Source: a virus. From it: DNA of 64,000 nucleotides. The stretch spans positions 10,897 through 74,896 of IMG/VR virus record IMGVR_UViG_3300018026_000007. One strand, 5' to 3'. The position numbers were made by a program, and so were the translations under genes. Shown piece after piece: positions 14,486-54,260 of this stretch; position 1 is the stretch's first letter; every line of letters starts with the position of its first letter. The notes beneath the pieces were generated by a model. That model searched no databases, was not told the origin of the DNA, and saw nothing but the letters and a program-made list of their open reading frames with translations.

Positions 14486-14531
14486 AACAAGACTTTTCCT
14501 TTCATAAGTGGAGTCTTGCACTCTACCACCT

Positions 14532-17500
14532 ATGTCTACGCCTGCCATCATTGCCGTCACTCCAGGCACAGGGATATTGCTTGACGCCGTGAGCCTGGTT
14601 GTCGGCGCGAATACTGTCGTCCGCGAGACGATGGTAATCGCCGACCCGTCCAATCCTACCCGCTTAGCCAACGTGACGGCGGCTGGTGCGCTGCAGGTTG
14701 ATGGGTCCGCAGCGTTGCAGCCTGTCTCGACCATCGGGCAGACGATAGCAGTGACGAACGCGGGTGTTTTCGCCGTTCAGGATTCTGCTGCCGAAGGTTA
14801 CCTGGGGACAATCGCAGGAGCCATTTCCGCCAGCACAATGACGGTGACGGGAACAGTCACGGCCAACATCGGAACCACGAACGGGCTGGCTCTGGATTCT
14901 TCGCTCTCAACCATCGACGCGGACATCAAGAGCAACATCACGCTGCATGCTGGAACCAATCTTATTGGCAAAGTAGAAGTCAGCGATGGCACGAATGTGC
15001 TGTTCACTGTGGGCAATCCTGGCTATGTGCAGGGCACCATCAGTATCGGCAGCGGACCCTTTGCTGTCACGCAATCGACTTCGCCGTGGATTGTGGCGGG
15101 TGGTGGTACCGCAGGCTCGCCAGGAACAGCCGTTCTCACGGTTCAGGGTATCAGCGGCGGCCAGGCGGTGCCTGTTAGCGGAACCTTCTATCAAACTACG
15201 CAGCCCGTTTCAATTGCATCGGGGCAGGTCGCGAGCGGGGCATTTGCATCGGGCTCGATTGCTTCGGGAGCTATCGCATCGGGTGCGGCAGTCTCAGGTG
15301 CATTCGCTGACGGGTCTCTTGTTACGCTTGGTGCTGAGTCCGACGCGAAAAATTCCGCAACCGATAATACCGCCGTTACAATCATGTCCGTGTTGAAGGA
15401 AATTAGCTACATGGCGCAGAATCCTGCGGCTGTGTCTGCAACAAACAACATTGCAAACGTATCGGCAGTCGTGAATGCGGCGAATAGCAGTACTTCTGCG
15501 CTCAATGCGGGCGTATCGTTTACAGGCACTGTGGTTGATTTGATTAGCGTGATGTATACCGCAATTCAAGTTCAACTGTTGACCGATCAAAACGGGATTC
15601 TAAAAATTCAATTCAGCACAGATAACAGCCATTGGGACCATACGGTTTCTGGACTCGTCACTGCAAATGAATCGACCAGCCTAAGCACAGGTATTCATGG
15701 TCGCTACATGCGTGTGATGATGACCAATACATCCGCCAGCAATCAAACATTCTTGCGGCTTCAGACGCTGCTCGTCCCGATTCCCGTTCAGCCTACTATC
15801 AAGGATTTAGATACAGCGGTCGGCAACGACGACAACGCCATGGTTACACATACCGTAATTACAGGTATAGTGCGCTCGGCTGCCGGGTCCTTTGAGAATG
15901 TTGAGGTTTCTCCATCAGGGGCATTGCTGATAGCAACAGAAGGCTCGGTTCTGGGTGATACTGTAACAACTGCGCGCCGTAACCAAATCGAAATAAATTT
16001 TTCTAGCTCTGATGCGACAGACGCCACACTCATCACTAACACAACGTCTGGTACGGGAGCGATTACACAGGCGAATGGCGAAGCTCTATACTCAACGGGT
16101 ACGGGGGCGGCAGGCGAAGCGCAAGGCGTGACAGTTGCCTCCATTCGCTATCGTCCTGCAAACGACATTTACGCAGAATTCACTGCCGCATTTACAACAC
16201 CTACGGATGCAACTGCCGCCAACGACTATCAACGAGTTGGTGTCTATGATACAAACAACGGCTTATTCATTGGATATGAAGGGACCGCATTTGGAGTCAC
16301 AATTCGTCGCGCCACGGTCGATACGCGAGTATTATTAGCAAACTTTAATCTGGACCCGCTCGACGGTTCTGCGGATTCTGACTTCACTCGTGCGGGAGTG
16401 CCGGAAGCAGTCGATTTTACAAAATTAAATATATTTCGCATTCGGTTCGCTTGGTTTGGCGCGGGTCCCGTCTTTTTTGATATCTTCACTCCTGATGGCG
16501 CATGGTTGCCGTTTCAGATGGTTCGCAACCCCAATCTCTCAAATACGCCATACATCGCGACCCCGAATCTGCCACTAACGATAGACGCATTCAAAACTTC
16601 ATCGGACAGCACCAATCTGCAAATTCGACTCGGCTGCATGGCGGCGGGCGTGACCGAGTCTGCTATTCGTTTGTCCGATCCGATGGTCAACTCTACTCTG
16701 GCTATTCCTACTCGGTCGATTCTTGTGGGTCAGAATCCTTCCGGGTCGTACACAAACGTGGGGGTGGATGTCACCGGCTCCCTGAGTATCGGCACAATTA
16801 CCGCTGAGACGAATTCCGCAACTTCGGCGGCTTGGACTCATGCAACAGCAGGAAATACGACACTGGTCGCATCCGCCATTGGTTTTGCCAACGCGACTTT
16901 TGGATTCTCTCTGTCTGGGGGTGTCATTGCCAGCGGAGTCATTCAGTTTGAAGGGACGGTTGACGGTACCAATTGGATTGCTCTGTCTGTGGAACCTATC
17001 GCTGGACAGACCAATCCGGTTACGAGCTATAGCCTTGCCGCTGCCGCGAATAACATTTGGCAAACCTTCATAGGCGGACTTTATCAGGTTCGCATCCGCC
17101 TGAGTACAGGCATTTCAATTTCATCCGGTTCTCCGGTTGCAACTGTCTGGATTCGTCCTTCATTTGCGACAACAGAACCCACAGGATTAGTTTTTCAACC
17201 AACAGGCTCTAATCTTCATGTCGTTGTAGATTCTCCGTTGCCTTCTTTAGCCGCTGGTTCTCAAATCATCGGGCAGATCAAACTGGTAGACGGGCCGGGA
17301 AGCGTCAACCAAGCGATGGTAAAGGCTGCATCTACGCAGTCGGCATCCACCGACACCTCGTTAGTTGTTCAGATAAATCCGAACCAGCCAAACCTATCTA
17401 CAGCCTTGAACGTGAGCGCAAGCATCGCGGCAGCCCAAACACTGGCGACAGTTACTACCGTCTCTACGGTCACCACAGTAACGAATCCAGTATCAACGCG

Positions 17501-17834
17501 ACCCGCGTCACCCACGACATCTACTTGGAGTCAGGCTGCTATTAGTTTCAGCGGCAGCGGTGCAAATATACTTGTGGCGGGCGTGGGTGGTCAGACCGTT
17601 CGGATTATGCGGCTCTTTATAGTGAATTCGGATGCAGCGACCGCGACAAACATCACCATTCAAGACACAACTCCGACCTCGTTTTCGGGAGCCTTCAGAC
17701 TGGCATCGGGGGGTAGTTGGTCTGGCGATGGCGCTGGTGATCCACTCTACACTACCGCAACAGGCAAGGGATTTCAGTTAAATAGCTCGGTGGCGGTTCA
17801 GATTTCAGGAACGGTGTGGTACACGCAATCCTAA
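14532..17834 (+). CDS. Large fibre/spike-like virion protein (about 1100 aa)
   Basis: S/T/G/A-rich, TQPVS and IASGA repeats, modular beta domains. Confidence 0.6.
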   Translation: MSTPAIIAVTPGTGILLDAVSLVVGANTVVRETMVIADPSNPTRLANVTAAGALQVDGSAALQPVSTIGQTIAVTNAGVFAVQDSAAEGYLGTIAGAISASTMTVTGTVTANIGTTNGLALDSSLSTIDADIKSNITLHAGTNLIGKVEVSDGTNVLFTVGNPGYVQGTISIGSGPFAVTQSTSPWIVAGGGTAGSPGTAVLTVQGISGGQAVPVSGTFYQTTQPVSIASGQVASGAFASGSIASGAIASGAAVSGAFADGSLVTLGAESDAKNSATDNTAVTIMSVLKEISYMAQNPAAVSATNNIANVSAVVNAANSSTSALNAGVSFTGTVVDLISVMYTAIQVQLLTDQNGILKIQFSTDNSHWDHTVSGLVTANESTSLSTGIHGRYMRVMMTNTSASNQTFLRLQTLLVPIPVQPTIKDLDTAVGNDDNAMVTHTVITGIVRSAAGSFENVEVSPSGALLIATEGSVLGDTVTTARRNQIEINFSSSDATDATLITNTTSGTGAITQANGEALYSTGTGAAGEAQGVTVASIRYRPANDIYAEFTAAFTTPTDATAANDYQRVGVYDTNNGLFIGYEGTAFGVTIRRATVDTRVLLANFNLDPLDGSADSDFTRAGVPEAVDFTKLNIFRIRFAWFGAGPVFFDIFTPDGAWLPFQMVRNPNLSNTPYIATPNLPLTIDAFKTSSDSTNLQIRLGCMAAGVTESAIRLSDPMVNSTLAIPTRSILVGQNPSGSYTNVGVDVTGSLSIGTITAETNSATSAAWTHATAGNTTLVASAIGFANATFGFSLSGGVIASGVIQFEGTVDGTNWIALSVEPIAGQTNPVTSYSLAAAANNIWQTFIGGLYQVRIRLSTGISISSGSPVATVWIRPSFATTEPTGLVFQPTGSNLHVVVDSPLPSLAAGSQIIGQIKLVDGPGSVNQAMVKAASTQSASTDTSLVVQINPNQPNLSTALNVSASIAAAQTLATVTTVSTVTTVTNPVSTRPASPTTSTWSQAAISFSGSGANILVAGVGGQTVRIMRLFIVNSDAATATNITIQDTTPTSFSGAFRLASGGSWSGDGAGDPLYTTATGKGFQLNSSVAVQISGTVWYTQS

Positions 17835-17846
17835 GTTGAGGATTTC

Positions 17847-20525
17847 ATGACGATAGTAATAAACAATCCTGGCGCGAGCGTTCCGCTAACAACATACGGC
17901 GATACGCTCTATGAAAACGGAACTCCTGCGCCCGCTCGATTGCCTGGAAATATAAACCCGACACGCCGGTATCTCAGCGAACTGGGTGCGTCGGCTCTTA
18001 CGCCAACTTTGGTGCAGTCCGCTAAGAACGTCGATGTGACAGGAACGACCCATCTGACGTTTGCACAAGCGTTTTCAAACAACAATACGGCAGGAAACCT
18101 TTTGTTTGTCTCGGTAACGTGGTATGGCGCGGGCTATACCGCGTCGGTTGCGGATTCCCAAGGCAATTCAGGATGGACCCCCGTCGCGGCCAAAGTGACA
18201 AACACCACGACGACCCAGGCTTTCTACTGCCCGAACTGCAAAGCTGGCGCAAATACGATAACAGTCACTTTTAGTAATTCCTCCGCGTCGTATCAGACAC
18301 TCACCATCGCCGAATTCTCAAATGTCAACACACTGGAGACCGAGGCTCAAACGACTGGAAGCGGCACGACGGCGGCAGGCGGGTCCATCGCCCCTACAGC
18401 AACAACATCGCTTGTGGTCGGTTATGCTGGCTCGAACATCAACGGGTATAATAGTCCGAGTGCTCCATGGGCTTTGATTGGGAGCGGTGCCAGTTGTGAC
18501 GGCCAAGTAGAATATCAAGTGGCTGCTGCGGGCACTTATGCGGCGGCGTTTCCGCTCGTCGGCACTGATTCATGGCAGGGGGGCACCGCCAGTTTTTATT
18601 TGGCTCCAGCGGCATTTGTGCAGGCGACCGATGCTTACGATGGATCGGGCGGTGCCAACACCACTTACAGCAAAGCGTTTGGCTCAAATAACACAGCAGG
18701 AAATTTGTTGTTTGTTGTCATCTCCTACGAGACGGGTGTTTCGATATCATCCCTATCGGATACGAACGGCAACGCTTATGTGCCGCTGCCCGCTGTCACA
18801 AGTTCCACTCATATTACCCAGACGTTCTATGCTCTGGGGTGTAGAGCGGGAGCCAATACAGTCACGGTTGCATTCTCGGGCGCAGGGGCAACGTATCCCG
18901 ATTTGATTATCAGCGAATACTCGGGCGTGAACGCCGTAGGCTCCTATACGACAGCCACGGGAAGCAGCAATGCGCCAGCCAGCGGCAACATCACGGCAGC
19001 CCCATGGTCTTTAATTTTGGGATATGGCGACGAAGGTTCGTGTAACTGGACGGCAGGAACAAGCTGGACTTTACGCTCAACGGCGGGGAGTCGTCGAAGC
19101 GCGCTGGAAGACCAGTTGAACGTGGCATCGGGAACATATAGCGCGACTTTTTCGATAAACGTCTCGTCATCGTGGAGGGCGGGTATCGTCTGTTTCTACC
19201 AGACATTCACAGGAACGGGCGCGCCAGCTTGGTCAACTCCGTCCGCCGCCGATTTAGCCAACGGCACCACAGGATCGGGAGCGGTTGTTTTGGCAACGTC
19301 GCCGACATTAGTAACGCCCAATATCGGTGCCGCCACGGCGACCACACCAACGGCAGGCGATAGCTCTACCAAAGTCGCCACGACCGCTTTTGTTTCATCG
19401 GCGTCCGCAAATACGCTTAATGTGAATGGTTCGGTGGTGGTGACCCCGTTTGATGTGAACGCCCTAGTGAATGGTAACGGTGTTGGCGGACAGGTGAACG
19501 TAAATGGGACGCCCGTTGAAACCGCCATTTCATGTATGATCGAGAATCCCGTCAACTTAGTAAATGGGCAGCGGGCCATAGGAACCACCTACTACAACAA
19601 CACGGGATTGCCGATGCTTGTGATTGTTTCGGTCTTTTCGGATACGGCGAATGTGGTTTACACGGCGGCGGCTGATAGCAGTGCCAATCCCTCGACGGTC
19701 GTTTATAAGACCGTAGGAGACAACAACTCATCCTACAACGACGTGTCCTTGACTTTCTTCGTCATGCCTGGACAATTCTACTCGGTGACTGCGAGTGCGG
19801 GATCGACCACAATTGAAGGATGGAGAGAATTCATTTGTCAGCGAGGTGCGATGACCGATAGCGGGGATATCCACACCACTCCAGGTCGTGCGCTCGCCAC
19901 CGTTTATCAGAATACTTCAGGAAAAACCATGTTCGTGGTGGCCCAAGTGGCGTCAGTAAACGCGGCTAGTGCGGTGCTGGGTCTCTCTGATTCGTCTCCC
20001 GCCCCGACAAATGTGGTCGATAGTTTTATGCAAAACTCTAGCGGAGCCAACACCGTCACCGTCATCATGATTGTGCCCAACGGGCATTACTATGAAGTGA
20101 CTGCGGCATCGGGCTCACTGGCGTTATGGCATGAGTACTCATGGGCTATCTCATGCCAGAAATCGACCGATTTGATTTTGACATCGGGGAGCGGGCAATT
20201 GCGAACGGGTGCTGGTTCCGCCGCACAGGTAAACACTGGGTCGAGCACATCTACGTTCGGTTCGCAGCAATACTGGCAGAACAATACTCAAGCTGTTCGG
20301 TGGGTTCAAGTGATTACGACGAGCGGCGCAGCGGATAGTTTTTGTCAAATTGCGGCGGGCGACGGAATTCCGCCGTACCAGATTTTGTCGGTTTGCAGGA
20401 GACATACGGCGGCTAGTTCTCGCCACACGTATGGACCCGTTTTGCCAGGAAAAACGTATGCATTTCTTGATACGACGAACAGTACTTTGACGCAATCCCA
20501 TTGGTGGGAGTACCAACTAGGATAG
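17847..20525 (+). CDS. Tail-fibre-like protein with internal domain repeats
   Basis: DSSTKVATTAFV fibre motif; duplicated NNTAGNLLFV..FY..C.AGANT domain; repeated Y.N..G..M.V modules. Confidence 0.65.
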   Translation: MTIVINNPGASVPLTTYGDTLYENGTPAPARLPGNINPTRRYLSELGASALTPTLVQSAKNVDVTGTTHLTFAQAFSNNNTAGNLLFVSVTWYGAGYTASVADSQGNSGWTPVAAKVTNTTTTQAFYCPNCKAGANTITVTFSNSSASYQTLTIAEFSNVNTLETEAQTTGSGTTAAGGSIAPTATTSLVVGYAGSNINGYNSPSAPWALIGSGASCDGQVEYQVAAAGTYAAAFPLVGTDSWQGGTASFYLAPAAFVQATDAYDGSGGANTTYSKAFGSNNTAGNLLFVVISYETGVSISSLSDTNGNAYVPLPAVTSSTHITQTFYALGCRAGANTVTVAFSGAGATYPDLIISEYSGVNAVGSYTTATGSSNAPASGNITAAPWSLILGYGDEGSCNWTAGTSWTLRSTAGSRRSALEDQLNVASGTYSATFSINVSSSWRAGIVCFYQTFTGTGAPAWSTPSAADLANGTTGSGAVVLATSPTLVTPNIGAATATTPTAGDSSTKVATTAFVSSASANTLNVNGSVVVTPFDVNALVNGNGVGGQVNVNGTPVETAISCMIENPVNLVNGQRAIGTTYYNNTGLPMLVIVSVFSDTANVVYTAAADSSANPSTVVYKTVGDNNSSYNDVSLTFFVMPGQFYSVTASAGSTTIEGWREFICQRGAMTDSGDIHTTPGRALATVYQNTSGKTMFVVAQVASVNAASAVLGLSDSSPAPTNVVDSFMQNSSGANTVTVIMIVPNGHYYEVTAASGSLALWHEYSWAISCQKSTDLILTSGSGQLRTGAGSAAQVNTGSSTSTFGSQQYWQNNTQAVRWVQVITTSGAADSFCQIAAGDGIPPYQILSVCRRHTAASSRHTYGPVLPGKTYAFLDTTNSTLTQSHWWEYQLG

Positions 20526-20536
20526 GAGAAAATTCG

Positions 20537-22830
20537 ATGGCACAGACAATCAACTGGAGTGGCACAACACCCGCCGCCCCCGCAAACGCAATCAACGTGG
20601 CCTGGCAGAATGACAGCAGCACGCCTCCGAACATTTCGGCGAACGTGCCGAGTGGTGTCGGCGGTGCGGCCAATATCGTTGCCCGTAAAGTTCTTACCGC
20701 TCAGACGGCGGCGCAGAGTAGCGTTAGCCTTTTGTCGGTGCCGTCCAGCGGAGCGGGATTCTACAAGGTTCACTACGTCGCTACAATCACCACGGCGGCG
20801 ACGACTGGCGCGGCCACCTCTACTTTGGGTGGCTCAGCGGGCTTCCAGTTGGTCTATACCAACGGAAACGGCGACGCTGTCTCCAAAACGACAGTCGGAA
20901 CCGTAAACAACTCAACGGCAAACACGACTGGCACATCGATATCGGGGTGTGTCGCCGCCTATTGCTCGGCGTCTTCAACCTTGGCATTCAGTTTTGGCTA
21001 TGCCAGCAATACGGCGGCACAGATGGCTTACGATCTTGCAATCTTTGTCGAATTCGTGGGAGCCTAATTCTAAAATAAGACTTTCCGTTCCATAGGTAGG
21101 AGAAGGACTATGCCGAACAGTATTGCCGACACTTTGAGCGCGGCGAAGGGCGCGCTTGTTCATGCAAACGCTGCATTTCCGAGCCCATCCACCCCGAAGG
21201 CGGCACCTGCCGCACCGAAACCAGCGGCCAAAGCCGCACCGTCACTCGGCGAAGAACTAGCTGTCAAAAAGAGCATGGTGGATAAAGCGGTATCCGCGCT
21301 GCCGAAAATGCATGACGGCGGGCCCATCCTCGCGGACGGAGGCTATCAGTTGAAAGCTGGGGAGCATGTCTTGACCGCGCCGCAGGCAAAGATGGCACGC
21401 AAGCACGCGCTGATGGCTGTTGGACTAAAATCCTTGAGCAAACCAGGCAAGACAAGTTCAAAAAAGAGGGCATAACAATGAAATCGAATAGCGGACACGA
21501 GAAAGCCCCGCAACCCAAATCGGTTATGGTATTCAAGGGCATCAAGGGGCTCGTCGCTTCGGGACCAGGAACCAAAAAAGCCGTTGTCCATGCGAAGGTG
21601 CGCCCCGAGCAGAACGAGGGTGCAAAAATCCCGCAGGACGCGACGAAGAAAACGCCTACCATGACCGCATCCAAAACGGCCATGAAGACCATGCCGCATG
21701 GCAAGGTCAATGTCTCGTCGAACATTCGACCAGAAGGCGCGATTAAACGCGACGCCGCGAGCGTCGTGAAGCTGTAACTAGGGAGAATCTCATATGGGAT
21801 CGATTAGAACACTCGGGCTTGCCACTGCTGTCACAGGGACGCCGACGCCCGCCGTCTTGGCTGCCGCATACTACACCAGTTCGAATTTGGCAACGCCTGG
21901 AGTGGTGATTGCCGCTGTGTCATTCTCAATCAAGAACAACATCGCAACCATTGTGATGGGCTCTCTGCCGACGAACGGCTACAACGGTCCCAACGGCTAT
22001 CCGACCGCCAACGCGACCACGGGATCGCGGTTCGATCTTCAGTCGGTATCTCCTGCAGCGAATGGCCAGAAGGTTGTTCTGTGGGGCTTCTCAACCGCGA
22101 CGTATTTCAACGGCAAGGTTGTGACGGTTCGGGACTGCGACCCATCCACTCTATCATTCAGTTTTTATTTCAAGCATGCCGATGTCAACAGCACAAACGA
22201 CACAGGAAATACCGCGCCAGCCCCCGCCCAGCACTATCGGGCCATTCGGCTCGAATGCGGCCAGTCACTCAGCACCGACCTCATCTATGTCGGTGACGGC
22301 AACGTGTCTTCGACGCAGTATATGGCCTGCTTGTCCCTTGCGGGGCAACTCGCCATCGAGATCGCGTCGGACAACATCCCGCCCGAAGGAATTTGGATTG
22401 ATACCAGCGGGTCGTCATCTAACGACCAAGTCATGGTGACAGTGATTTACTAAGTCAGGAAAGATGAGCCATGCCCGTCCTGCATTACTCTATTAGTGGC
22501 AATGTCGGGGTGGCGGCTGCAGGCGCGACGGTAACCCTCTCGGGCGCAGCCAGTGCAACAACGACTGCCGATATTGCAGGGAACTACACGTTCGGCGGTC
22601 TTCTGAATGGCGCGTATTTTATCACACCTGCCCTGGCGGGATTTGTTTTTACCCCACACAGCGCGGCTAGATCGATATCGGGGGCAAATGTCACGGGCGT
22701 AAATTTCACGCCGTCGCCGATAGTCATACCGCCCGCATCCGTAGTTTTTAAGACAGAAATCTCCGCGCGGATTACCTCGGCGCGCACGGAGCTTGTGGGA
22801 ACAAATTTAGGCACAAGAACCATGAGGTAG
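20537..22830 (+). CDS. Small putative virion proteins (20537-21067, 21110-21475, 21478-21777, 21794-22453, 22471-22830)
   Basis: SD motifs and tiling; 22471 has an Ig/carboxypeptidase-regulatory-like pattern (GATVTLSG..GNYTF..L.NG.Y.ITP). Confidence 0.6.
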
Positions 22831-29115: not shown

Positions 29116-30111
29116 ATGATTTTACCGCCTGGCGTGCAGAGTACGACTCTTGCCGCTTTCCCACAGATCGCATACGACCGAACCGCCATTCTTGAGTGGC
29201 AGTTCAACACTCCGTTCCTGGAAGAGCTTTGCGACTTCCGACCTCTGCCGCGTCGGTCTGGTCGGACGCTCCAGTTCTACGGGCAAACTCCGTATGCTGC
29301 CGCGACCTACGACCTGTCTGAAGGTATCCCAGGGCCGTCACTCCAGTTGAACCAAGTTTTCAGCGATGCATTCGCCGATGAATACGGCGACTGGATCGGC
29401 ATTTCGAACGTCGCACAGCAAATGTTCCTTGCGGACATCACGCTGGACGCGAGTCGCAACCTGTCGTATCGGGGTGCTCTGACGAGCAACCTGATCGCGA
29501 TTAACGGCTTCGAAGCCGCTGCGACCGCTCAGGCTTCCGCCCGCATCGACTTGCTCGACAACGAATTCATGCTTTCCAACACGATTCGGAAGTGCGAGTC
29601 CCAGTTGATGGGCAACGCGGTTCCTGGTCGCGATGGTGGGCTCTATACGTCGGCTCAGCACCCGTACGTTGTGTACGACTTCATGTCGGACAACAGCGCG
29701 GGCTCTGCCGTCGATACGCTGAAGCGATCCGAATCGGGTGCGAATGTCCTGAAGTCGGACATGACGCGCGGCTACACCGTCCTGGAATGGGCGGGCGTCC
29801 GCATCATCCGTACCCAGACCGTGCCGACCTACACCAACTACCCGTCCACGGGCAAGACTGGTTATGCGTCGTACGTTGTGGGCCGCGAAGCCATGATGGC
29901 TTCCGAGTTGCTGGGCCAGCGCGTTCCGCGCAACCCCAGCTTCAAGGTGAACGTCAAGACCTTCGGCGATAACGACATCGACCTCAGCAACCCCATGTTG
30001 CAGACACGAGCAATCGTGAGCTACGACTGGTTCCTGGGAGTCGTTGCCCGTCCGAATACGAACAACACTCCTGGCTTCCGCCGAGTGCGCTGCGAAGTCA
30101 GCGCGGTGTAG
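29116..30111 (+). CDS. Major capsid protein (HK97 fold, N4-gp56-like)
   Basis: PLPRRSGRTLQF, LSEGIP, EYGDWI, HPYVVYD, GVRII; strong codon bias. Confidence 0.85.
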   Translation: MILPPGVQSTTLAAFPQIAYDRTAILEWQFNTPFLEELCDFRPLPRRSGRTLQFYGQTPYAAATYDLSEGIPGPSLQLNQVFSDAFADEYGDWIGISNVAQQMFLADITLDASRNLSYRGALTSNLIAINGFEAAATAQASARIDLLDNEFMLSNTIRKCESQLMGNAVPGRDGGLYTSAQHPYVVYDFMSDNSAGSAVDTLKRSESGANVLKSDMTRGYTVLEWAGVRIIRTQTVPTYTNYPSTGKTGYASYVVGREAMMASELLGQRVPRNPSFKVNVKTFGDNDIDLSNPMLQTRAIVSYDWFLGVVARPNTNNTPGFRRVRCEVSAV

Positions 30112-40809: not shown

Positions 40810-41826
40810 GTGAGCAGCAAAGACGAAGTGTCTACAAATCTATCTGACGTGGTCGCAGGCATCGAAAAGCAACACGGCAAGGGTTCTATCATGATGCTGG
40901 GCAGCAAGGAATTTGTGCCCATCGATGTGATCCCCACGTCATCGCTGGCTCTCGACGAAGCTCTGGGCGTCGGCGGGCTTCCACGCGGGCGCGTTGTTGA
41001 AATCTACGGGCCCGAGTCGGGCGGCAAGACCACTCTGGCACTCCACATCATCGCCGAAGCGCAAAAACTCGGCGGTAAGGCAGCCTTCGTAGACGCCGAG
41101 CATGCCCTGGACCCAGTCTACGCTCGCAAGCTGGGCGTCGATGTTGACCACCTGCTGGTGTCTCAGCCCGATAACGGAGAACAGGCACTGGAAATCACAG
41201 AGTCCTTGATTCAGTCGGGCAAAATCGCCATCATCGTGGTTGATTCGGTGGCGGCCCTAGTGCCGAAGGCCGAACTTGAAGGCGATATGGGTGATCCGCA
41301 GATGGGACTTCAGGCGCGCCTGATGTCACAAGCTCTGCGCAAGCTCACGGGCATCACGAATCAGACCAAGACGGTGCTGATTTTCATCAATCAGATTCGC
41401 GAAAAGATCGGCGTGATGTTCGGCAATCCCGAGACAACGACGGGCGGGCGCGCTCTGAAGTTTTATGCATCCGTCCGCCTAGATATCCGCAAGATCGGGG
41501 TCATCAAAGATGGCGACAAGGTGATTGGTGCCGACACCCGTATCAAAGTTGTCAAGAATAAAGTTGCCAGCCCATTTCGTGAAGCGGAAGTCCGCATCCT
41601 GTATGGGTACGGCATCTCGCACGAGACTGATTTGCTGCGCCTGGGCGAGCAGCATAAGGTTCTCGAAAAGAGCGGCACTTGGTTTTCATATAGGGACGAG
41701 CGACTGGGACAAGGGGAAGAAAGAGCCCGTTTGTTTTTGGTCGAACATCCCGAAGTCGCGGGCAAGATTGAAACAGAACTGCGCAAGCTAATCTTCAAAA
41801 ACGAGGTGAAAGATGTCTCAAAGTGA
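40810..41826 (+). CDS. recA: Recombinase RecA
   Basis: [44 protein letters not shown]. Confidence 0.97.
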
Positions 41827-45689: not shown

Positions 45690-46922
45690 GTGAGCAGTAC
45701 CGACTCATTTCTTGACATGGCCCGAAAAGAGGTAGTCGCTGCGGGCGGCGAGTGGGATGGTTTGCAAATTCCATTCGGGGAATCTGATCCTACTCCCGCC
45801 ACGATTCATTTTTATCATCGCCCGACAAGTCGGCACTTAACGGTATCTGCGAATTTATTGATTGATACCCGAGACTGGGTTGCACAACAAATTCAAGAAG
45901 CGATTACAGGGAAAAAGGTTCCTAATAGGAGAAGTTCTATGACACTGCGCGAGAAGCTGATTCAGGTTTACGAAGAGATTGACCACATTGAAAAGCTGGG
46001 GACGAATAGCAAGCAAAATTACTCGTACGTGCGCGCCGCCGACATGGTTCGCGCCGTGCGCAAGACCCTTCTGAAGCTCAAGGTCTATGCCGAAATCAAC
46101 ATGGTCAATGAGCGGCAGTATACCATCGCCCGAGCGAAAGATGTGAATGCCCCTTTCAACGCCGTCGATGTACGTTGCACTATCGTGTTTCATGACGCCG
46201 AGTCGGAAGAGATGCTGACTTCTAGCGGTCTCGGGACTGGCGCGGATACGGGCGACAAAGCCATCTACAAGGCCCAGACGGGCGCAATCAAGTACGCGCT
46301 ACGAAATAGCTTCCTAGTGCCCGATGAAGCGGACCCAGAAGCCGATCCAGTTGTGGATGGCGCGCCAGAGCCCGAAGGCTACTCTCCAGCCGAGCCCCCT
46401 GACTTCCAGGATGCCCGCCACGCGGCTCCGCGCGCTCCAGCCGCCGCTGCCGCCCCAGCGCAGCGGGTTTTGGAGACGACCGATGTCCCTTTAGGGCCCG
46501 CCCAGCCCGAGAATGCTCCTGCCTCGGCTGGGCCCAGCCAGCCTGTCCCCTCCACGGGGACTCAACAATCATCTGGTGCGGCACCTGCGGCTGCCCCGTC
46601 GCAGATGAAGAATGCACAGGCTGCGGCTGACGACACACTGCCGACCGAAGAAGAACTGACGCAGTATCGCAAGGCGTTCAGCACCCTGGGCGACGACTTG
46701 ACGGCCAAGGGGAAACTGAAGTCCAGCAAGGGGCTGCCCGTCAATCGCAAACTGCTGGCATTCTTGCTGTTCATCACTGGCGCGGCGGAAGCCAAGAGCA
46801 TCACGAAGGCGCAATGGGATGATTTCTTCCAGCGCGTGGATCACGTCAAGGGCTTGGAAGACGGTTTGGTTGGTCTCGCCAAGCTGGTGAACAAGGCCAA
46901 CGGAGTTGAAGAGAAGAAGTAA
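45690..46922 (+). CDS. ERF-family ssDNA annealing protein (second start at 45939)
   Basis: K.G.N..QNYSY, G.DTGDKAIYKAQTGAIKYAL...F.VP. Confidence 0.8.
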   Translation: MSSTDSFLDMARKEVVAAGGEWDGLQIPFGESDPTPATIHFYHRPTSRHLTVSANLLIDTRDWVAQQIQEAITGKKVPNRRSSMTLREKLIQVYEEIDHIEKLGTNSKQNYSYVRAADMVRAVRKTLLKLKVYAEINMVNERQYTIARAKDVNAPFNAVDVRCTIVFHDAESEEMLTSSGLGTGADTGDKAIYKAQTGAIKYALRNSFLVPDEADPEADPVVDGAPEPEGYSPAEPPDFQDARHAAPRAPAAAAAPAQRVLETTDVPLGPAQPENAPASAGPSQPVPSTGTQQSSGAAPAAAPSQMKNAQAAADDTLPTEEELTQYRKAFSTLGDDLTAKGKLKSSKGLPVNRKLLAFLLFITGAAEAKSITKAQWDDFFQRVDHVKGLEDGLVGLAKLVNKANGVEEKK

Positions 46923-46964: not shown

Positions 46965-47411
46965 ATGGCAATGTCAGTGAACAAGGCAATCGTAATCGGT
47001 CGGCTCGGGAAAGACCCCGAAGTCCGTTTTACAGGAAGCGGCGCGGCGGTGGCGAGTTTCAGTCTCGCAACCGACGAGTCGTACAAGAACAAGGACGGCG
47101 AAAAGGTTCAGAAGACAGAGTGGCACAATCTTGTTGTCTGGGGAAACTCCGTCGAAGCGTTCGTTCAGAAATATCTCCACAAGGGCGACCTGATCTACGC
47201 CGAAGGCAAACTGCAGACCCGATCCTGGGATGACAAAGACGGCAACAAGCGATACACGACCGAAATCAATGTGACCGACATCAAAAAGCTGTCCGATGCG
47301 AGCGGCGAGAAGCAAAACCCCGCGCAGAATCGCCAGGCCAGCAAGCCAGCGGCTCGACCCGCGTCGCGCCCCACAGCCCAGCCCGTTGACGACGACGATA
47401 TCCCGTTCTAG
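46965..47411 (+). CDS. ssb: Single-stranded DNA-binding protein
   Basis: SVNKAIVIGRLGKDPE, TEWH, EGKLQTRSW, DDDIPF tail. Confidence 0.97.
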   Translation: MAMSVNKAIVIGRLGKDPEVRFTGSGAAVASFSLATDESYKNKDGEKVQKTEWHNLVVWGNSVEAFVQKYLHKGDLIYAEGKLQTRSWDDKDGNKRYTTEINVTDIKKLSDASGEKQNPAQNRQASKPAARPASRPTAQPVDDDDIPF

Positions 47412-47759: not shown

Positions 47760-49340
47760 ATGCTGGAGTTGAATCCAGATCAACAGCGGGTTGTTACGGA
47801 CTACCGAGGCGCGCGGTCGGTGATCGCGTGTCCTGGCTCGGGTAAAACAGCCACCATGACCGCTTTAATTAACAAGTTGATCGATTCTGGTGTCTCCCCA
47901 TCTGAAATCCGCGCAGTGACGTTTTCGAAAGAGATGTCATCTGCCCTAGAGAAACGGGCAGGTGTGAAGGGCGTCGTATCCACCTTCCATAGCCTGGGCT
48001 ATCTGATTTGTTCCGAGACTGAACGCAAACCCGTCGATCCCGAGTTACGGCACCGACTGATGTGCAAGCTCGTGCGCAAGTATCATCTGGATTACAAGGA
48101 ACTGGATGGCTTCATCGCACGCATGCGGCGCAACAACATTTCGCCAGACGAAGCCGTGAACGGCATGAACGATTTTGATTACGGCATGGCGCGAGGGTAC
48201 GCGGAATACGAGCAGACCCGCGCAACCGAAGGCTGGATGGACTTCGATTCCATGTTGGCCGATTCTGTGCAATCACTAGAAAATGCACAAACTCGTGCAA
48301 GGTGGTCTCCGAAGTATTTGATTGTCGATGAAGCCCAAGACACGGACGACCTGCAGTGGCGCATGATGCAACTGATGGCCGAGAAGCATGGAAACATTAC
48401 AGTAGTCGGGGACCCAGGACAGGCGATTTACAGTTTTCGTGGCGCGAAGCCTGACAACATCACGAACTTTCAGCAGTGGTTTCCGCAAGGTAAATACTAT
48501 TACTTGGGGCGCAATTACCGCAGCACACAAACGATAGTACAGTTCATCCGAGAGAACGCGCCGCCTGGTACCCCGAAAGAGTTGCTAGATCGAATGGTGG
48601 CCGCCCGCAAAGATGTAGGCACGCCTATTGGCTTGCGGATGTACTGGACAGACGATGCCGAAGCTGAGTCCGCGTTGAAACTTTCGCAGCGGGACCCACT
48701 TAACAGCATCATTCTTGCCCGCACGAACCGCATGGTTGGATTGCTGGAGCGGCTGTGCGCGCGGTATAATCTTCGATATCATTTGCTGGGCAAGTCGGGA
48801 TTCTGGAAACAGAACGAAATCCGCAAAGCCATCGAAGCCCTGAAACAGTATCCCTTGATTTCGACCGAAGCTGGATTGAATTTAACCATACCAGGAGTCG
48901 AAAAACACTACGCTGTTGAAGATCGTACGGAGCGCGACAACGACGCCCTGGAAAACCTGAAGACACTGCAATTGATCGGAAAAGATTTTCGGATGGCGAA
49001 GGATTTTGTCGTCTACGCGAACAAGATGATGCATCGACGCAACGACCCGCGCGGCGTGTCAATCTCCACGGTTCACCAGGCGAAGGGCGGTGAGTGGAAG
49101 AATGTTTACATCATCGGTGCGAACGCCAAGGGCTTCCCGCACGCTAAGGGCGATCCGATGGAAGAGCGAAGAATTTGGTTCGTGGCAATCAGTCGGCCAA
49201 TCGACATGCTGCGCATTTCGTTCGCAGGAACACCGTCGCCGTACCTACGGCGATATCTAAACGACGAAATTTTGGACAAGTTGCGCGAGAAGGCAACAGA
49301 AGTTGACCACCTACAGGAACAGGCGAACCTTTTTTCTTGA
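47760..49340 (+). CDS. UvrD/Rep-like SF1 helicase
   Basis: LNPDQ, ACPGSGKT, DEAQD, VGDPGQAIYSFRGA, NYRS, TVHQAKGGEW, EERRIWFVAISR. Confidence 0.92.
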   Translation: MLELNPDQQRVVTDYRGARSVIACPGSGKTATMTALINKLIDSGVSPSEIRAVTFSKEMSSALEKRAGVKGVVSTFHSLGYLICSETERKPVDPELRHRLMCKLVRKYHLDYKELDGFIARMRRNNISPDEAVNGMNDFDYGMARGYAEYEQTRATEGWMDFDSMLADSVQSLENAQTRARWSPKYLIVDEAQDTDDLQWRMMQLMAEKHGNITVVGDPGQAIYSFRGAKPDNITNFQQWFPQGKYYYLGRNYRSTQTIVQFIRENAPPGTPKELLDRMVAARKDVGTPIGLRMYWTDDAEAESALKLSQRDPLNSIILARTNRMVGLLERLCARYNLRYHLLGKSGFWKQNEIRKAIEALKQYPLISTEAGLNLTIPGVEKHYAVEDRTERDNDALENLKTLQLIGKDFRMAKDFVVYANKMMHRRNDPRGVSISTVHQAKGGEWKNVYIIGANAKGFPHAKGDPMEERRIWFVAISRPIDMLRISFAGTPSPYLRRYLNDEILDKLREKATEVDHLQEQANLFS

Positions 49341-49409: not shown

Positions 49410-50549
49410 ATGAGCAGCATGAAACCGCACTTGTACATCAACAGTAAGGGGTACTTCGTCACCCGCCATAGTTATAGCGGGTCCGACTCGTTCACCTACT
49501 GCGCCCGCAAGTACTATCTGGAGCGCGTGCAGGGTTGGACCGAAAAAATCCAACGGTCGTCTACACACTTCGGCACCGCGCTGGAGAAGGCCATCACATT
49601 CTGGCACCAGCACCGCCAGGACACGGCGGCGGCTGTCGCGGAATTTGTGCGGCTCTGGGCCGCGCACAACGACAAGCCGTACACGTATTCCAAGACGGAC
49701 AAGGACTGGAACAACCTGAATCTGAACGGCCAGGACCTGGTGCGTCTCTACGCTATCCGCTATCCGACGTTTCCATACGTCGTGAACAATCCCATGGACT
49801 TTCAGGTCGAGACCAACTTTGAGGTGTTTCCAGACACGAAGTTGGCTGGGATTGAATTCACATCCTACATTGATGTGGTGGTGACTGACAAAGCCACGGG
49901 CGAGCCTGAGATTGTTGATATGAAGACATCGGGCGACGATGTGCCTGAATTTACGGTGCTGGACCCACAGCTTCGCAGCTATGCGTGGGTGAAATGGCGT
50001 CCCGAAGACACCAGCAAGCTCGTCGCGTTCTTGTGGTTCCGCAAGATGGGGCGGTCTATTTCTCGGGGCGACACGGTTACATTCCTGGAGCCCTACGCCG
50101 ACCTGCAGCCTGGTGATAACGCCATCGTGTTGGCGAAGGATGAATTCGGCATCTGGGTTACACAGAACCAGCGTGTCGTTGATGAAATGGACGCGCAATT
50201 CGTCGGCGAGAGCAAGGCGGTAAAGGCGGCGCGCCAGCAATACATCGAGGCAAACGCCAAGCATGCGCCCGAGCGGGTCATCACCAAGCAGCGTGTACAA
50301 TTCAAATCGGCGGTCATCACAAAAGAAAGCGCGGAAGATATCGGACGCAAGATCAAGCGCGACATCGTGAACATCGTGCGGGCAAACGAGAACGAAGACT
50401 GGGCCATGAATTCTGGGGTCCGATTTCCGAATGAGCGGTGCCCGAACTGCCCGATGCGGGGCATCTGCGCTAATCGTCCCGAGTTGCGGGACATGCTTCT
50501 GGTTCGCAAGCAAGAAGATGAGCTTGACTTCGGTAAAGAATCGGAGTAG
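49410..50549 (+). CDS. PD-(D/E)XK nuclease (RecB/Cas4-like)
   Basis: SYS..CARKY, FGTA, ID..IVDMKT, QLRSYA, C..CP...IC. Confidence 0.85.
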   Translation: MSSMKPHLYINSKGYFVTRHSYSGSDSFTYCARKYYLERVQGWTEKIQRSSTHFGTALEKAITFWHQHRQDTAAAVAEFVRLWAAHNDKPYTYSKTDKDWNNLNLNGQDLVRLYAIRYPTFPYVVNNPMDFQVETNFEVFPDTKLAGIEFTSYIDVVVTDKATGEPEIVDMKTSGDDVPEFTVLDPQLRSYAWVKWRPEDTSKLVAFLWFRKMGRSISRGDTVTFLEPYADLQPGDNAIVLAKDEFGIWVTQNQRVVDEMDAQFVGESKAVKAARQQYIEANAKHAPERVITKQRVQFKSAVITKESAEDIGRKIKRDIVNIVRANENEDWAMNSGVRFPNERCPNCPMRGICANRPELRDMLLVRKQEDELDFGKESE

Positions 50550-50560
50550 TCTACACTCTC

Positions 50561-52393
50561 ATGCTCGAAAATATCCCTGCGATACTCAAGCAGTATCCGA
50601 ATTGGGTCGTCTGGAAGTCTGTCGTCCGCGATGGTAAGGCGACCAAAATTCCCTTCGATGCCAAGACTGGCAGCATGGCGAAATCCAATGACGCCATGAC
50701 CTGGGCAACATTCGAACAAGCCATCAAAACTGGGGACGTGCTGGAAGGCTCCGACTACAACGGTGTGGGATTCGAACTGCATGGAACTTCGATAGTTGGG
50801 ATCGATTTCGACAACGCCATCAATCATAAAGGTGTCATTGATCCATACGTGTTGGAGATTCTGAGCTTATTGGGGGACCCATACACAGAAAAATCCCCGA
50901 GCGGGACAGGGCTTCATGCTTTTGTAGATTGCGCCGCGTTGCCCGAGGGCGGCAGAAAATTATCACAGGCGCACAGCGGAATTGAAATATATCACGGTCA
51001 AGAGGGCGGTCGCTATTTCACAATGACTGGGGAAAAGGTGCTCGGCGACGGAATCCCAAAAATCGCGGACATCACACTGCCGTATCTCCTGATAACCCAG
51101 AACAAAGATAAAAAGTTCAAATCCGCATGGCTGGGAGATACATCACTGTTTAACGGCGACGACTCCAGTGCGGATTTCTATCTATTGACTCGGCTTGCCG
51201 CGCTCACACAAAACAACCCGCTGAAAATGGAATCATTCTTTAGTGTGTCCAAGCCAGGGCATCGGGAGAAATGGCACAACCGAAAAGATTATCGTGAGCG
51301 ATCCATCAAAGCGGCTATTGGCACCAATCTTACTGGTAAGCCTGTGTCAGTATCTGCCGCGATTGAATTTCACACCCCTGCGCGCCCTGATCCAGATGGG
51401 GAATATGTGATTGCACCTATGGCTGGTCAAGATGATGGATGGTTCCCTCTTGGCGACATCAGTCTGATTGGTGGAGCCAGCGGTACGGGAAAGACAACGT
51501 GGATTTTTGAAATGCTGCACAAACAGAAGCAAGGCTACCCCATACACGATCACCGCACTCATGGATATTTGTTTCAAGTTCTGGCATACGACCGAGGCAG
51601 GAATGCGTTCGCCCGCACGATGCGGCGATTGAACCTGCTTCCATCGGATATACCTACGACGCCGCTACCGCTTGCTTTCGGCACCGAGGCAGTGCAAAGC
51701 GTCATCAATGAAATCGAAAAGATGAATCCAACCCCCAACATCATCTTCATTGAGGGGCTGGATATGCTTCTCGACGACGCCAACAAAAAATCAGTCGTTT
51801 CCCCCTTCATGCGCCAACTACAAGAAACGGCAGCCCACTTCCATATAGCCTTAATTTGTAGCGTCGGGGCTCCTAAGACCAAGCGCGGGGAAGATTACGC
51901 AGCCAAGCGCGACAAACTGTCAGGCAGCGAAGCCTGGGGCCGCAATTGTGAAACCGTCTGCGTTCTGGAATTCGCGGAGGATGATGACGGCACCGCGCCA
52001 CAGAGAATTTTGACGATCCTTCCACGAAACGCCCCTGCTGAGAAGTTCACGCTGCAGTTTGAGGGTGGGCGTTTGGTGCCCGTTCAGGCAACAGAAGACC
52101 CGAAACAGGACCCTGGCGGGCGGCCACCTGAATCACTTCAGAAAGCCATCAATTTCCTTGAGCGCGAGCTTCAAGATGGGCCGCGCCTGGGCAAAGAAAT
52201 CATCGTTCTTGCACGGGATTTGGAAAACATCAGTCGTGCGACTCTCTATCGGGCCGCCGAGGTTGCACACGTTCAAAAGGATGTTCGCATAGCGGGAAAA
52301 TTGTGTTGGAAACTTACCCCTATGAACGAAACCAACGATCCACAAGAGGACGAAGAGGCGGGGCCGACCAGCACGGAGTTTAAGTATGAGTGA
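50561..52393 (+). CDS. Primase-polymerase (AEP) fused to an AAA/RecA-fold ATPase
   Basis: WVVWK..KIP, GIDFD, EKSPSGTGLH, IEIY..RYFTMTG, D.SSADF; GASGTGKTT. Confidence 0.85.
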   Translation: MLENIPAILKQYPNWVVWKSVVRDGKATKIPFDAKTGSMAKSNDAMTWATFEQAIKTGDVLEGSDYNGVGFELHGTSIVGIDFDNAINHKGVIDPYVLEILSLLGDPYTEKSPSGTGLHAFVDCAALPEGGRKLSQAHSGIEIYHGQEGGRYFTMTGEKVLGDGIPKIADITLPYLLITQNKDKKFKSAWLGDTSLFNGDDSSADFYLLTRLAALTQNNPLKMESFFSVSKPGHREKWHNRKDYRERSIKAAIGTNLTGKPVSVSAAIEFHTPARPDPDGEYVIAPMAGQDDGWFPLGDISLIGGASGTGKTTWIFEMLHKQKQGYPIHDHRTHGYLFQVLAYDRGRNAFARTMRRLNLLPSDIPTTPLPLAFGTEAVQSVINEIEKMNPTPNIIFIEGLDMLLDDANKKSVVSPFMRQLQETAAHFHIALICSVGAPKTKRGEDYAAKRDKLSGSEAWGRNCETVCVLEFAEDDDGTAPQRILTILPRNAPAEKFTLQFEGGRLVPVQATEDPKQDPGGRPPESLQKAINFLERELQDGPRLGKEIIVLARDLENISRATLYRAAEVAHVQKDVRIAGKLCWKLTPMNETNDPQEDEEAGPTSTEFKYE

Positions 52394-52491
52394 GTGTGAG
52401 CGCAACCCCCTGCCTTCAGGCATGGGGTCAAGCGAGTAGTTTGCACAAAGAAACCTATTGCAATAGGTAGCGGAGACTGGTATAATGCATC

Positions 52492-52890
52492 ATGCTCGAA
52501 GGATACAAGTCAAACAACAACGTCGTGTACTCCAGCAAATATCACGTCGTCTGGTGCCCGAAGTATCGACGCGAGGTGCTGGATGGTCCGATAGCGAGAC
52601 GATGCGAACAGGTCCTGCGACAGACATGCAAGAAGTATCGAGCCGAAATCATCGCCTTAGAGATTATGCCCGACCACGTACATCTGCTGGTCGAAGTGGA
52701 CCCACAATTTGGGATACATCGACTTGTCAAAAATCTCAAAGGTGTGTCGTCGCATACACTGCGCAAAGAATTTGCCAGTTTGGTTTCACGTCTGCCGACG
52801 CTCTGGACAAATTCGTATTTCGTTTCGACAGTCGGTGGTGCTCCGCTTTCAGTGATTAAACAGTACGTTGAAAATCAGAAGAACGTCTGA
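52492..52890 (+). CDS. tnpA: IS200-type HUH (Y1) transposase
   Basis: YHVVWCPKYRR, DHVHLL, LWTNSYF, YVENQK; promoter TTGCAA-17-TATAAT at 52458. Confidence 0.96.
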   Translation: MLEGYKSNNNVVYSSKYHVVWCPKYRREVLDGPIARRCEQVLRQTCKKYRAEIIALEIMPDHVHLLVEVDPQFGIHRLVKNLKGVSSHTLRKEFASLVSRLPTLWTNSYFVSTVGGAPLSVIKQYVENQKNV

Positions 52891-53936
52891 TGATTCAAGC
52901 GCAACTCAAACTTCGGCTCAACACCAAACAGGATGCCATTCTGACGGGCTGGCTGTGGAACCTCACGGGTGTGTGGAACTGGGCGGTCAAGAAAATAGAA
53001 TTGGATGCGAAGGATAAGATTTTCTACTCCCCGAAAGAATTTCACAATCTGCTGGCAGGGCACAGCGAAAAGATGGAGATTCCCAGCCACACCCTGCAGG
53101 GCATGCTATCGCAGGCGCATCTAGCTTGGAGCCGATGCTTCAAGAAATTAGCAAAGAAGCCTCACCTCAAAGGACTACGCAACAAACTCAATAGCATTCC
53201 GTTCCCTGATCCATTACGTGCGCCTGTCGGCAACCATATTGCAGTGCCTGGGTTGGGCTCTGTTCGATTCCACCGTCAGGATATTCCCGAGGGCAAAATC
53301 AAGTGTGGGCGCATTGTCAAACGTGCGTCGGGTTGGTATCTCTGCCTGTTCATTGCTGCCGACCGAGAACCGATTGCGCACACAGCGCATGGACAGATCG
53401 GAATCGACCCTGGATTCAAGAGCCTGCTCACGACATCCGAGGGCGAGATTATAGAGCATCCTCGGGAACTGGAAGCGGGCGCACAAAGATTGGCGCAAGC
53501 GCAACGCGGCAACGACCGAACCCTTGCCGCACGTTTGCAAGAACGCATGGGCAATCGGCGCAAAGACCGAAACCACAAACTATCTCGGCAACTTGTCGCG
53601 GAAAACGATTTGATTGCGTTCTCCGCAGACAACCATAAAGGTGTTGCCAACAAATTTGGGAAGAGCGTTTCCAGTTCTTCACATTATCAACTTCGACGGA
53701 TGCTTTCGTACAAAAGCCGTGCAGGCGGTACGGAATATGTCGAAGTTGATTCTAAGTTTTCCACCAAAACCTGTTCCAACTGCGGGAGCCTCTCTGGTCC
53801 TACAGGATGGGCAGGGTTGTCGATAAGGCAGTGGCGATGCACAGAGTGTGGAACTCTTCACGACCGCGATGTCAATGCGGCTCGTAACACGCTACAGGCT
53901 GCCCTCGGAACGAGGGTCGAGGTGTGCTGTGCGTAA
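52890..53936 (+). CDS. tnpB: TnpB RNA-guided nuclease homologue, RuvC-II Glu apparently absent
   Basis: GIDPG, CSNCG..CTECG, DRDVNAARN; IAFSADN where IxxEDLN is usual. Confidence 0.92.
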   Translation: MIQAQLKLRLNTKQDAILTGWLWNLTGVWNWAVKKIELDAKDKIFYSPKEFHNLLAGHSEKMEIPSHTLQGMLSQAHLAWSRCFKKLAKKPHLKGLRNKLNSIPFPDPLRAPVGNHIAVPGLGSVRFHRQDIPEGKIKCGRIVKRASGWYLCLFIAADREPIAHTAHGQIGIDPGFKSLLTTSEGEIIEHPRELEAGAQRLAQAQRGNDRTLAARLQERMGNRRKDRNHKLSRQLVAENDLIAFSADNHKGVANKFGKSVSSSSHYQLRRMLSYKSRAGGTEYVEVDSKFSTKTCSNCGSLSGPTGWAGLSIRQWRCTECGTLHDRDVNAARNTLQAALGTRVEVCCA

Positions 53937-54014
53937 GCATGGCGCAGTTCGGAATCCCCATGGCTTCAGCCATGGGGAGGTTCAGGTTCAAAATATCCTC
54001 GGAACAGATAAAAC

Positions 54015-54236
54015 AGTTTTGAGACGTGAGATTTTACCTCTATATATAATAGAATCAATAATATATTCGTCTCAAAACCCTTCTGAGACAGTTCTGAGAC
54101 AGAGGGGGGTTTTGAGACAAGATTACTCTTTGGTCACAAAGTTGTCTCACGTCTCAGAACTGTCTCAAAACCCTTCTGAGACAACCAACCCTCTGATATC
54201 AATAGCTTTACATACGAAATCTCACGTCTCAAAACT
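54015..54236. repeat. Iteron/inverted-repeat cluster, probable replication origin
   Basis: Perfect 20-bp IR (54015-54034/54217-54236), 22-bp direct repeat (54069, 54162), about 10 TGAGAC/GTCTCA hexamers, AT-rich core. Confidence 0.7.
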
Positions 54237-54260
54237 AAATGCATGTTGCGGGAGGTTCTG

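Follow-up and report, generated by a model that had tools for sequence, protein, structure and literature searches.

The question raised by this locus is why a phage genome from which the tetramer CCGG has been almost erased should carry a cluster of that word inside one tail-fibre gene. The DNA studied is a stretch of 64,000 nt, referred to here as the window, and corresponds to positions 10897-74896 of a virus contig of 74,896 bp (IMG/VR record IMGVR_UViG_3300018026_000007) of uncultured origin, from peat. An earlier note, made from the letters of the window alone, had counted by hand about 11 CCGG, nine of them between 15883 and 17969, where several hundred were expected. It had proposed strong selection by a HpaII/MspI-like host system and a recent import of the C-terminal part of the fibre gene. 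The answer that we regard as probable is that restriction-type selection acted on this phage for a long time and that, after CCGG had been purged, a cassette within the fibre gene was swapped for one from a donor which lacked the same hexamers and was naive for CCGG.

The hand count was exact, with identical positions: 4599, 15883, 16401, 16741, 16774, 17016, 17125, 17133, 17295, 17966 and 30564. A second-order Markov model predicts 300 sites in the window, in keeping with the several hundred supposed, and base composition predicts 346. The observed/expected ratio (O/E) of 0.037 is by far the lowest of the 256 tetramers, the next in order being CCTC (0.51), GGCC (0.54), GAGG (0.56) and GATC (0.59). 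This Markov tetramer check had been suggested in the earlier note, and by it CCGG is neither near expectation nor uniformly spread. Two further sites lie in the part of the contig upstream of the window, and the complete contig has 13 CCGG for approximately 347 expected. Nine of the 13 fall in 15883-17969, the segment called the island below.

Expectations were also derived from a codon-pair model, in which neighbouring codons are independent and follow the genome's own codon usage; crude gene calls were used. Genome-wide the model predicts 350 CCGG. Outside the island only 4 are observed for 336 expected (O/E 0.012), while between 15700 and 18100 there are 9 for 14.6 expected. The dodging of CCGG by codon pairs, remarked on earlier, is real on this analysis, and depletion is seen in all three codon phases. 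Proline is encoded by CCG in 1 of 440 cases before a G-initial codon, compared to 346 of 736 elsewhere, where CCG is the commonest proline codon. Similarly, the arginine codon CGG accounts for 1 of 374 after a codon ending in C and for 275 of 1117 after codons without a final C, and NCC codons (Ser, Thr, Pro, Ala) for 2 of 432 before glycine and 1595 of 5336 in general. Since codon use depends on context in all three phases, the selection is on the DNA word and is not a codon bias. The features on which the argument turns are as follows.

1-64000, CCGG-purged backbone; outside the island only 4599 and 30564 remain in the window.
14508-17834, + strand, gene for a tail-fibre-like virion protein of 1108 codons from GTG (public calls: ATG at 14532, 1100 aa).
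15027-15882, + strand, left-border support interval of the presumed import (a likelihood region); the alignments of P0002, P0003, P0008 and P0006 start at residues 312-318.
15883-17298, + strand, core unpurged island with 8 CCGG, fibre residues ~459-931.
17299-17969, + strand, uncertain tail, ie residues 932-1108 (the C-terminal module), 12 bp of spacer and codons 1-41 of the gene that follows, with one CCGG (17966).
17847-20525, + strand, second fibre-like gene of 892 aa, fully purged after codon 41; relatives have partial homologues from residue 31 on.

The clustering of nine of 13 sites has a binomial P of 9e-11, and the largest cluster generated in 20,000 simulations contained 7. A change-point likelihood calculated on the codon-pair expectation gained 21.5 log units, with support intervals of 15027-15883 for the left border and 17307-18888 for the right. 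Within the core (15883-17298) the 8 sites observed compare with 8.5 expected, ie an unselected density. On either side CCGG is absent: there are none for 9.1 expected in the same fibre gene to the left of the island, none for 4.6 in 17299-17965, and none for 15.4 in the remainder of the next gene (17970-20525). For the C-terminal 177 or so fibre residues (nt 17301-17831) we estimate from the interval expectations that about 3.6 should have been present, where there are none. This C-terminal module probably belongs to the purged background, and the site at 17966, which falls in codons 40-41 of the gene downstream, is possibly a stray of the same kind as the four other residual sites. The division between core and C-terminal module was made post hoc, after the data had been seen, and its P value is approximately 0.01-0.03.

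Alignments of homologues divide the fibre into modules at residues ~312-318, 480, 760-800 and 929-938. With its last CCGG ending at 17298 and residue 932 starting at 17301, the unpurged core comes to an end at the module joint at residues 929-938. On the left, the module start at residue 312 (nt 15441) falls within the support interval of the border. A segment that differs from its surroundings in a lineage-specific signature, with borders that coincide with joints between protein modules, is what an exchanged module would be expected to look like. The earlier proposal of a recent import is therefore kept as regards a segment that arrived after the purge, and is narrowed from the whole C-terminal part of the fibre to the core, residues ~459-931, possibly from 312.

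The island differs from naive foreign DNA in one respect that had not been anticipated in the proposal of an import. The genome of the study phage is free, or nearly so, of at least 15 hexamer palindromes (O/E of 0.15 or less), for instance AAGCTT (0 observed, 24 expected), CGATCG (0, 35), CCGCGG (1, 48), GGCGCC (1, 27) and GTCGAC (0, 20). The island contains none of 15 such genome-avoided palindromes, where about 10 are expected. Its synonymous codons were resampled 300 times with the genome's codon usage. Eight of these hexamers are shared by the clade; they are expected 6.3 times in the island, are not seen, and none of the 300 resamplings gave so low a count. The seven further hexamers avoided by the study phage are likewise missing (4.2 expected, P 0.017). 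By the same procedure CCGG is close to expectation (8 seen, 11.6 expected, P 0.14). In the cassette, then, the avoidance of hexamers seen in the recipient is present and only that of CCGG is missing. Because it is hexamer-free yet normal in CCGG, its donor would have had largely the same history of restriction as the recipient: it was probably purged of the hexamers beforehand, naive for CCGG only, and a member of the same phage group or restriction environment.

A phage of the required type exists among the relatives. Terminase relatives from soil and peat viromes (50-73% identity) purge different words, and whole genomes were compared for the study phage and four fetched records, G006, G007, G008 and G010, whose mean protein identity to it is 58-64%; hexamer and tetramer profiles were also taken over 27 loci. 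Observed and expected CCGG counts are 13 and 347 in the study phage, 22 and 343 in G006, 127 and 361 in G007, 349 and 504 in G008, and 457 and 432 in G010. The last of these, with a CCGG O/E of 1.06, is at or near zero in AAGCTT, CACGTG, CGGCCG, GACGTC, GGCGCC, GGATCC, AACGTT, ACGCGT and AGCGCT. It has no homologue of the cassette. CGATCG, GGCGCC, GACGTC, CTCGAG, CGGCCG, GGATCC, CACGTG and CCGCGG are near zero throughout the five genomes or in almost all of them, so that the avoided sets of the relatives overlap with that of the study phage; CCGG, GATC, GGCC and many hexamers vary among the five genomes and the 27 loci. GTCGAC and TGATCA are zero in the study phage and not clearly avoided in the other four (in G008 the expectations are too low to judge). 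G008 lacks GATC completely (347 expected) and has about 20 absent hexamers, with CTGCAG, CCATGG, TGGCCA and TTCGAA at zero in that genome only. The depletion of a short palindrome that is severe, independent of frame and part of a set differing among related phages is the pattern that restriction avoidance is expected to leave. Two non-palindromic words are also absent from the study phage, namely AGATCC/GGATCT (16 expected) and CAGCTC/GAGCTG (15 expected).

Partial depletions (CCGG and GGCC in G007, GGCC and GATC in the study phage) are thinned evenly and are not patchy. G006 has an unpurged island of its own, in which 6 of its 22 CCGG lie within 1057 bp (52176-53229; L062:12176-13229). For the 2-kb bin concerned the expectation is 5.9; the binomial P, uncorrected for the roughly 91 windows, is 1e-7. 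These sites fall in three small open reading frames which have weak matches to immunoglobulin-like or Hoc-like proteins and no counterpart in the study phage; an HNH endonuclease gene (G006 53509-53943) adjoins them. The existence of this second island means that residual sites as marks of a local later arrival are not unique to the study phage. Lineage-specific accessory genes elsewhere in the study phage are purged like the rest. A tree of 12 core genes from the five genomes is a star (bootstrap 35-44), and on it a shared CCGG purge in the study phage and G006 is not separable from independent ones.

The junctions of the island are real and not an artefact of assembly. Logan contigs from four other peat and wetland runs cover the region: a 30-kb contig spans 12500-19724 with 7 differences, others bridge 14961-16497 and 16495-21500, and the depth is flat over both island borders. 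None of the nine island CCGG is variant in these four samples. Seven natural variants of the full-length fibre protein, which vary at four positions, are encoded on contigs of 6-93 kb, and the island-bearing phage was detected in 24 peat and wetland runs from 2017-2020.

The four variable residues are S383N, V447A, Q531T and R539L (1100-aa numbering; window 15679-16147). Each of the changes is an amino-acid replacement, and two pairs of sites show all four allele combinations. Between 12500 and 21500 there are 9 codons with protein-altering changes and 3 without. The amino-acid-changing variants and mixed allele combinations suggest diversifying selection and recombination in the fibre genes.

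The other genes that bear on the history of the island are these.

40810-41826, + strand, RecA (Pfam).
45690-46922, + strand, Erf (Pfam).
46965-47411, + strand, SSB (Pfam).
47760-49340, + strand, UvrD-like helicase (Pfam).
49410-50549, + strand, PD-(D/E)XK nuclease, RecB/Cas4-like (Pfam), the only nuclease seen.
52485-53936, + strand, IS200/IS605 insertion sequence with a tnpA-like gene and tnpB (Pfam OrfB_IS605, Cas12f1-like_TNB).

The recombination genes between 40810 and 50549 form a predicted toolkit that could perform such swaps. The insertion sequence, reported earlier as free of CCGG, has none for 8.1 expected over tnpA and tnpB, and none of the avoided hexamers for 5.3 expected; its bacterial homologues carry 3-10 CCGG each. 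The element is therefore either resident for long enough to have been purged or from a purged source, as the earlier note had suggested. It lies between a primase/helicase-like gene and a gene for 170 aa (52393-54243). The orthologous gap is empty and of 202-259 bp in G006, G007 and G008, and for that reason the insertion appears to be specific to the lineage of the study phage. The contig is about 75% complete by the CheckV estimate and encodes a large terminase, an SU10-like portal, a major capsid protein, GroEL, two tRNAs and a permuted transfer-messenger RNA (tmRNA). No C5 or N4/N6 methyltransferase was found in this approximately three-quarters complete contig.

What kind of protein part the cassette encodes was judged from homologues and from a model. 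An N-terminal anchor of ~60-85 residues recurs, with identities of up to 89%, in 179 proteins (611-1921 aa) which differ in the remainder; this is the usual build of fibres and spikes. Residues 504-710 match phrog_1645 (virion structural protein). An AlphaFold2 model of residues 309-1108, with a mean pLDDT (predicted local distance difference test) score of 68, has three confident domains.

Residues 318-428, beta-sandwich (AlphaFold2 model).
Residues 478-718, concanavalin A (ConA)-like jelly roll (AlphaFold2 model).
Residues 998-1108, C-terminal sandwich (AlphaFold2 model).

The jelly roll (model residues 172-410) superimposes on GH16 glucanases with Z 17.9 and a root-mean-square deviation of 2.6 over 177 residues, and on the L-type lectin ERGIC-53 with Z 15.3. 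Foldseek also matched the central fibre of mycobacteriophage Douge, PBSX XepA and carbohydrate-binding modules. A sequence search of the PDB with both fibre proteins gave no match. The PHROG match, the anchor and the jelly-roll fold all place the protein among virion fibres and receptor-binding proteins. As the GH16 catalytic motif is absent from the jelly roll, the modelled cassette is more likely to bind glycans than to hydrolyse them.

The history proposed would have begun with a long period of selection against short palindromes as targets of double-strand cleavage, the simplest agents being the Type II restriction enzymes of the hosts. CCGG and at least 15 hexamer palindromes would have been removed through context-dependent synonymous codon choice. 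When the CCGG purge was essentially complete, an internal fibre cassette would have been replaced by recombination with a related allele, from about residue 312 or 459 to 931. The exchanged piece would include the beta-sandwich and the ConA/lectin-like jelly roll, likely the glycan-binding receptor part. The donor phage would have avoided the same hexamers and never have been selected against CCGG, and the cassette would not yet have been ameliorated, hence its nine conspicuous CCGG (eight in the core). The layers of avoidance would then act as a relative clock within one uncultured phage genome. The oldest layer would be the group-wide hexamer avoidance and the next the CCGG avoidance of a sub-group (the study phage, G006 and partly G007); the insertion sequence, already purged, would have followed, and the unpurged fibre cassette would be the youngest arrival.

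Several results weigh against this history. Neither GC content nor general tetranucleotide distance sets the island apart; the fibre region as a whole, from 14 to 19.6 kb, is mildly atypical. Neither a donor nor a sibling allele was found in locus scans of viral and metagenome sequences or in two protein searches, the best match being 77% protein identity over residues 312-780. No protein was found with the same N-terminal part and a different cassette, and no sibling with the same backbone and another cassette was recovered; nor was near-identical DNA found in the phage collection. The only host lead, a weak one, is TnpB, which is 75-77% identical to copies in Acidobacteriota metagenome genomes. 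Five candidate genomes of that phylum have normal CCGG content and do not avoid the word. No permuted tmRNA like that of the phage was found above cut-off in the candidates, which makes an Acidobacteriota host a weak guess. The HpaII and MspI families (PF09561, PF09208) gave nothing above cut-off in the five candidates and 301 genomes of the phylum, in a search in which the MspI control was silent. Of the earlier proposal of strong selection by a HpaII/MspI-like host system, sequence-level selection of the restriction-avoidance type is retained, and the host enzyme is putative; it is the avoidance pattern from which we infer restriction enzymes as the selective agent. Finally, thirteen CCGG leave the phage exposed to a CCGG cutter. 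Restriction is leaky, and escapers become modified. It is possible that the cost of the sites is tolerated because the gain from a new receptor-binding cassette outweighs it, or alternatively that CCGG pressure has recently eased.

Such easing, carried further, leads to the rival in which the host population no longer has the CCGG cutter, the purge records a past pressure and the cassette is neutral, of any age after the purge. The failure to find a CCGG enzyme in the candidate hosts would fit, as would the wide occurrence of the island-bearing phage in 24 runs with nine sites that are not polymorphic in four other samples, and traces of lost restriction-modification systems are documented in genomes (PMC4687349). 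However, only 4 CCGG are present in the 72 kb outside the island where 336 are expected, so that hardly any sites have re-arisen; this argues for a pressure that continues today or stopped a very short time ago. The insertion sequence and the accessory genes specific to the lineage are fully purged too, and we consider this alternative unlikely. Less likely again is that the agent was some other CCGG nuclease than a classical Type II enzyme of the host, belonging to a defence system, to this phage or to a competing phage. No cognate host enzyme family was found, and some phage genes are missing from view in a contig that is about 75% complete; but a self-encoded CCGG nuclease would make a nine-site island self-destructive, the sole nuclease seen is the RecB/Cas4-like one beside the recombination genes, and avoidance of at least 15 hexamer palindromes is a classical Type IIP signature.

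Mutation without selection is a very improbable cause of the depletion. Erosion through methylation of CCGG and deamination of 5-methylcytosine is conceivable wherever the site is C5-methylated, and CCAG (1.28) and CTGG (1.19) are mildly over-represented in the study phage. Nevertheless all one-step neighbours of CCGG are raised about equally, the transversion products CCGC, GCGG and CCGT as much as or more than these two, without an excess of transition products, and the values for CTGG and CCAG in G006 are 0.96-0.97. Before G, CCG is replaced mainly by CCC and CCT, which exceed the transition product CCA and follow general codon preferences. On both counts deamination-driven decay is unsupported. 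In addition, no C5 methyltransferase was found in the contig, and the O/E outside the island, 0.012, lies far below that of CpG decay in vertebrates, roughly 0.2. Still harder to credit is a resident CCGG cluster that has been kept or tolerated for a function, eg as a break-prone hotspot for fibre recombination. The hexamer avoidance that the island shares with the genome, as resident DNA would, is in its favour, as are the polymorphisms around the left border, with their four allele combinations at two site pairs, and the presence of RecA, Erf, UvrD and the PD-(D/E)XK nuclease. Against it, an extra mechanism is needed, G010 demonstrates that hexamer-purged, CCGG-naive donors exist, the core CCGG are at the unselected expectation (8 and 8.5) and not enriched, and the island of G006 sits in unrelated accessory genes. 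There is a similarly slight chance that host cleavage in a favoured or tolerated patch of this kind feeds those four recombination proteins and speeds the exchange of fibre modules, which would explain the polymorphisms and mixed allele combinations near the left border. As to a fibre segment stitched in from a co-occurring strain, the assembly is metagenomic and tail-fibre regions are classic points for chimeras. Contigs from other samples bridge both borders at flat depth, however, and seven intact variants of the 1100-aa protein occur on separate contigs, by which a chimera is effectively refuted and its probability practically nil.

A fibre-cassette swap after a CCGG purge combines processes that are both known, restriction-site avoidance and fibre mosaicism, and requires no new mechanism. 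Restriction avoidance is known to be recognisable by sets of avoided palindromes that are specific to a lineage (Rusinov et al. 2018, PMC6286503), and a lifespan effect and traces of lost systems have been described in genomes (Rusinov et al. 2015, PMC4687349). The present case resembles those reports (PMC6286503, PMC4687349) in that Type II-like palindromes are under-represented, by a synonymous route, in sets that differ between related phages. It is unlike them in being unusually extreme and multi-site (a 4-mer at an O/E of 0.04 and at least 15 hexamers in one 75-kb genome), in the concentration of the residual sites in one cassette, and in that no cognate enzyme family was found in the candidate hosts.

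Acquired DNA is said, by Lawrence and Ochman, to form compositional islands before it ameliorates, ie takes on the recipient's signature. Here too a segment without one recipient-specific signature is read as a later arrival, but the signature is a single selected word and not a mutational bias, and the segment already shows the other signatures selected in the recipient, which limits the choice of donor to phages of similar restriction history. De Paepe et al. in 2014 reportedly described modular exchange of tail-fibre receptor-binding parts by relaxed homologous recombination. The conserved N-terminal anchor, interchangeable distal modules, Erf and RecA, and borders at module joints are all as in that system; in contrast, the swap is deduced here from site content alone, and no genome pair with alternative cassettes was recovered. 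No published description of unpurged islands as markers of swaps was found in the literature. The new result is an island that lacks all 15 avoided hexamers, and its interest is in how cleanly the layers can be read. Applied at scale, the same logic could help to infer the restriction repertoires of hosts that are not known, to date swaps of host-range modules and to narrow the choice of donors in metagenomic phages without a cultured host.

Three minor observations were made in passing. AAGGAG/CTCCTT is found 3 times in the window for 20 expected, and GAGG/CCTC at about half of expectation; what is avoided here may be internal words of the Shine-Dalgarno type, not a restriction site. A contig of 152 bp and low depth from run X4 agrees with the beginning of the 892-aa gene over 37 bases (17902-17938), with 4 differences, before it diverges, and may come from a relative whose homology stops there. 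The major capsid protein (29116-30111) is 94-97% identical to that of the four relatives, whose other shared proteins average 58-64%.

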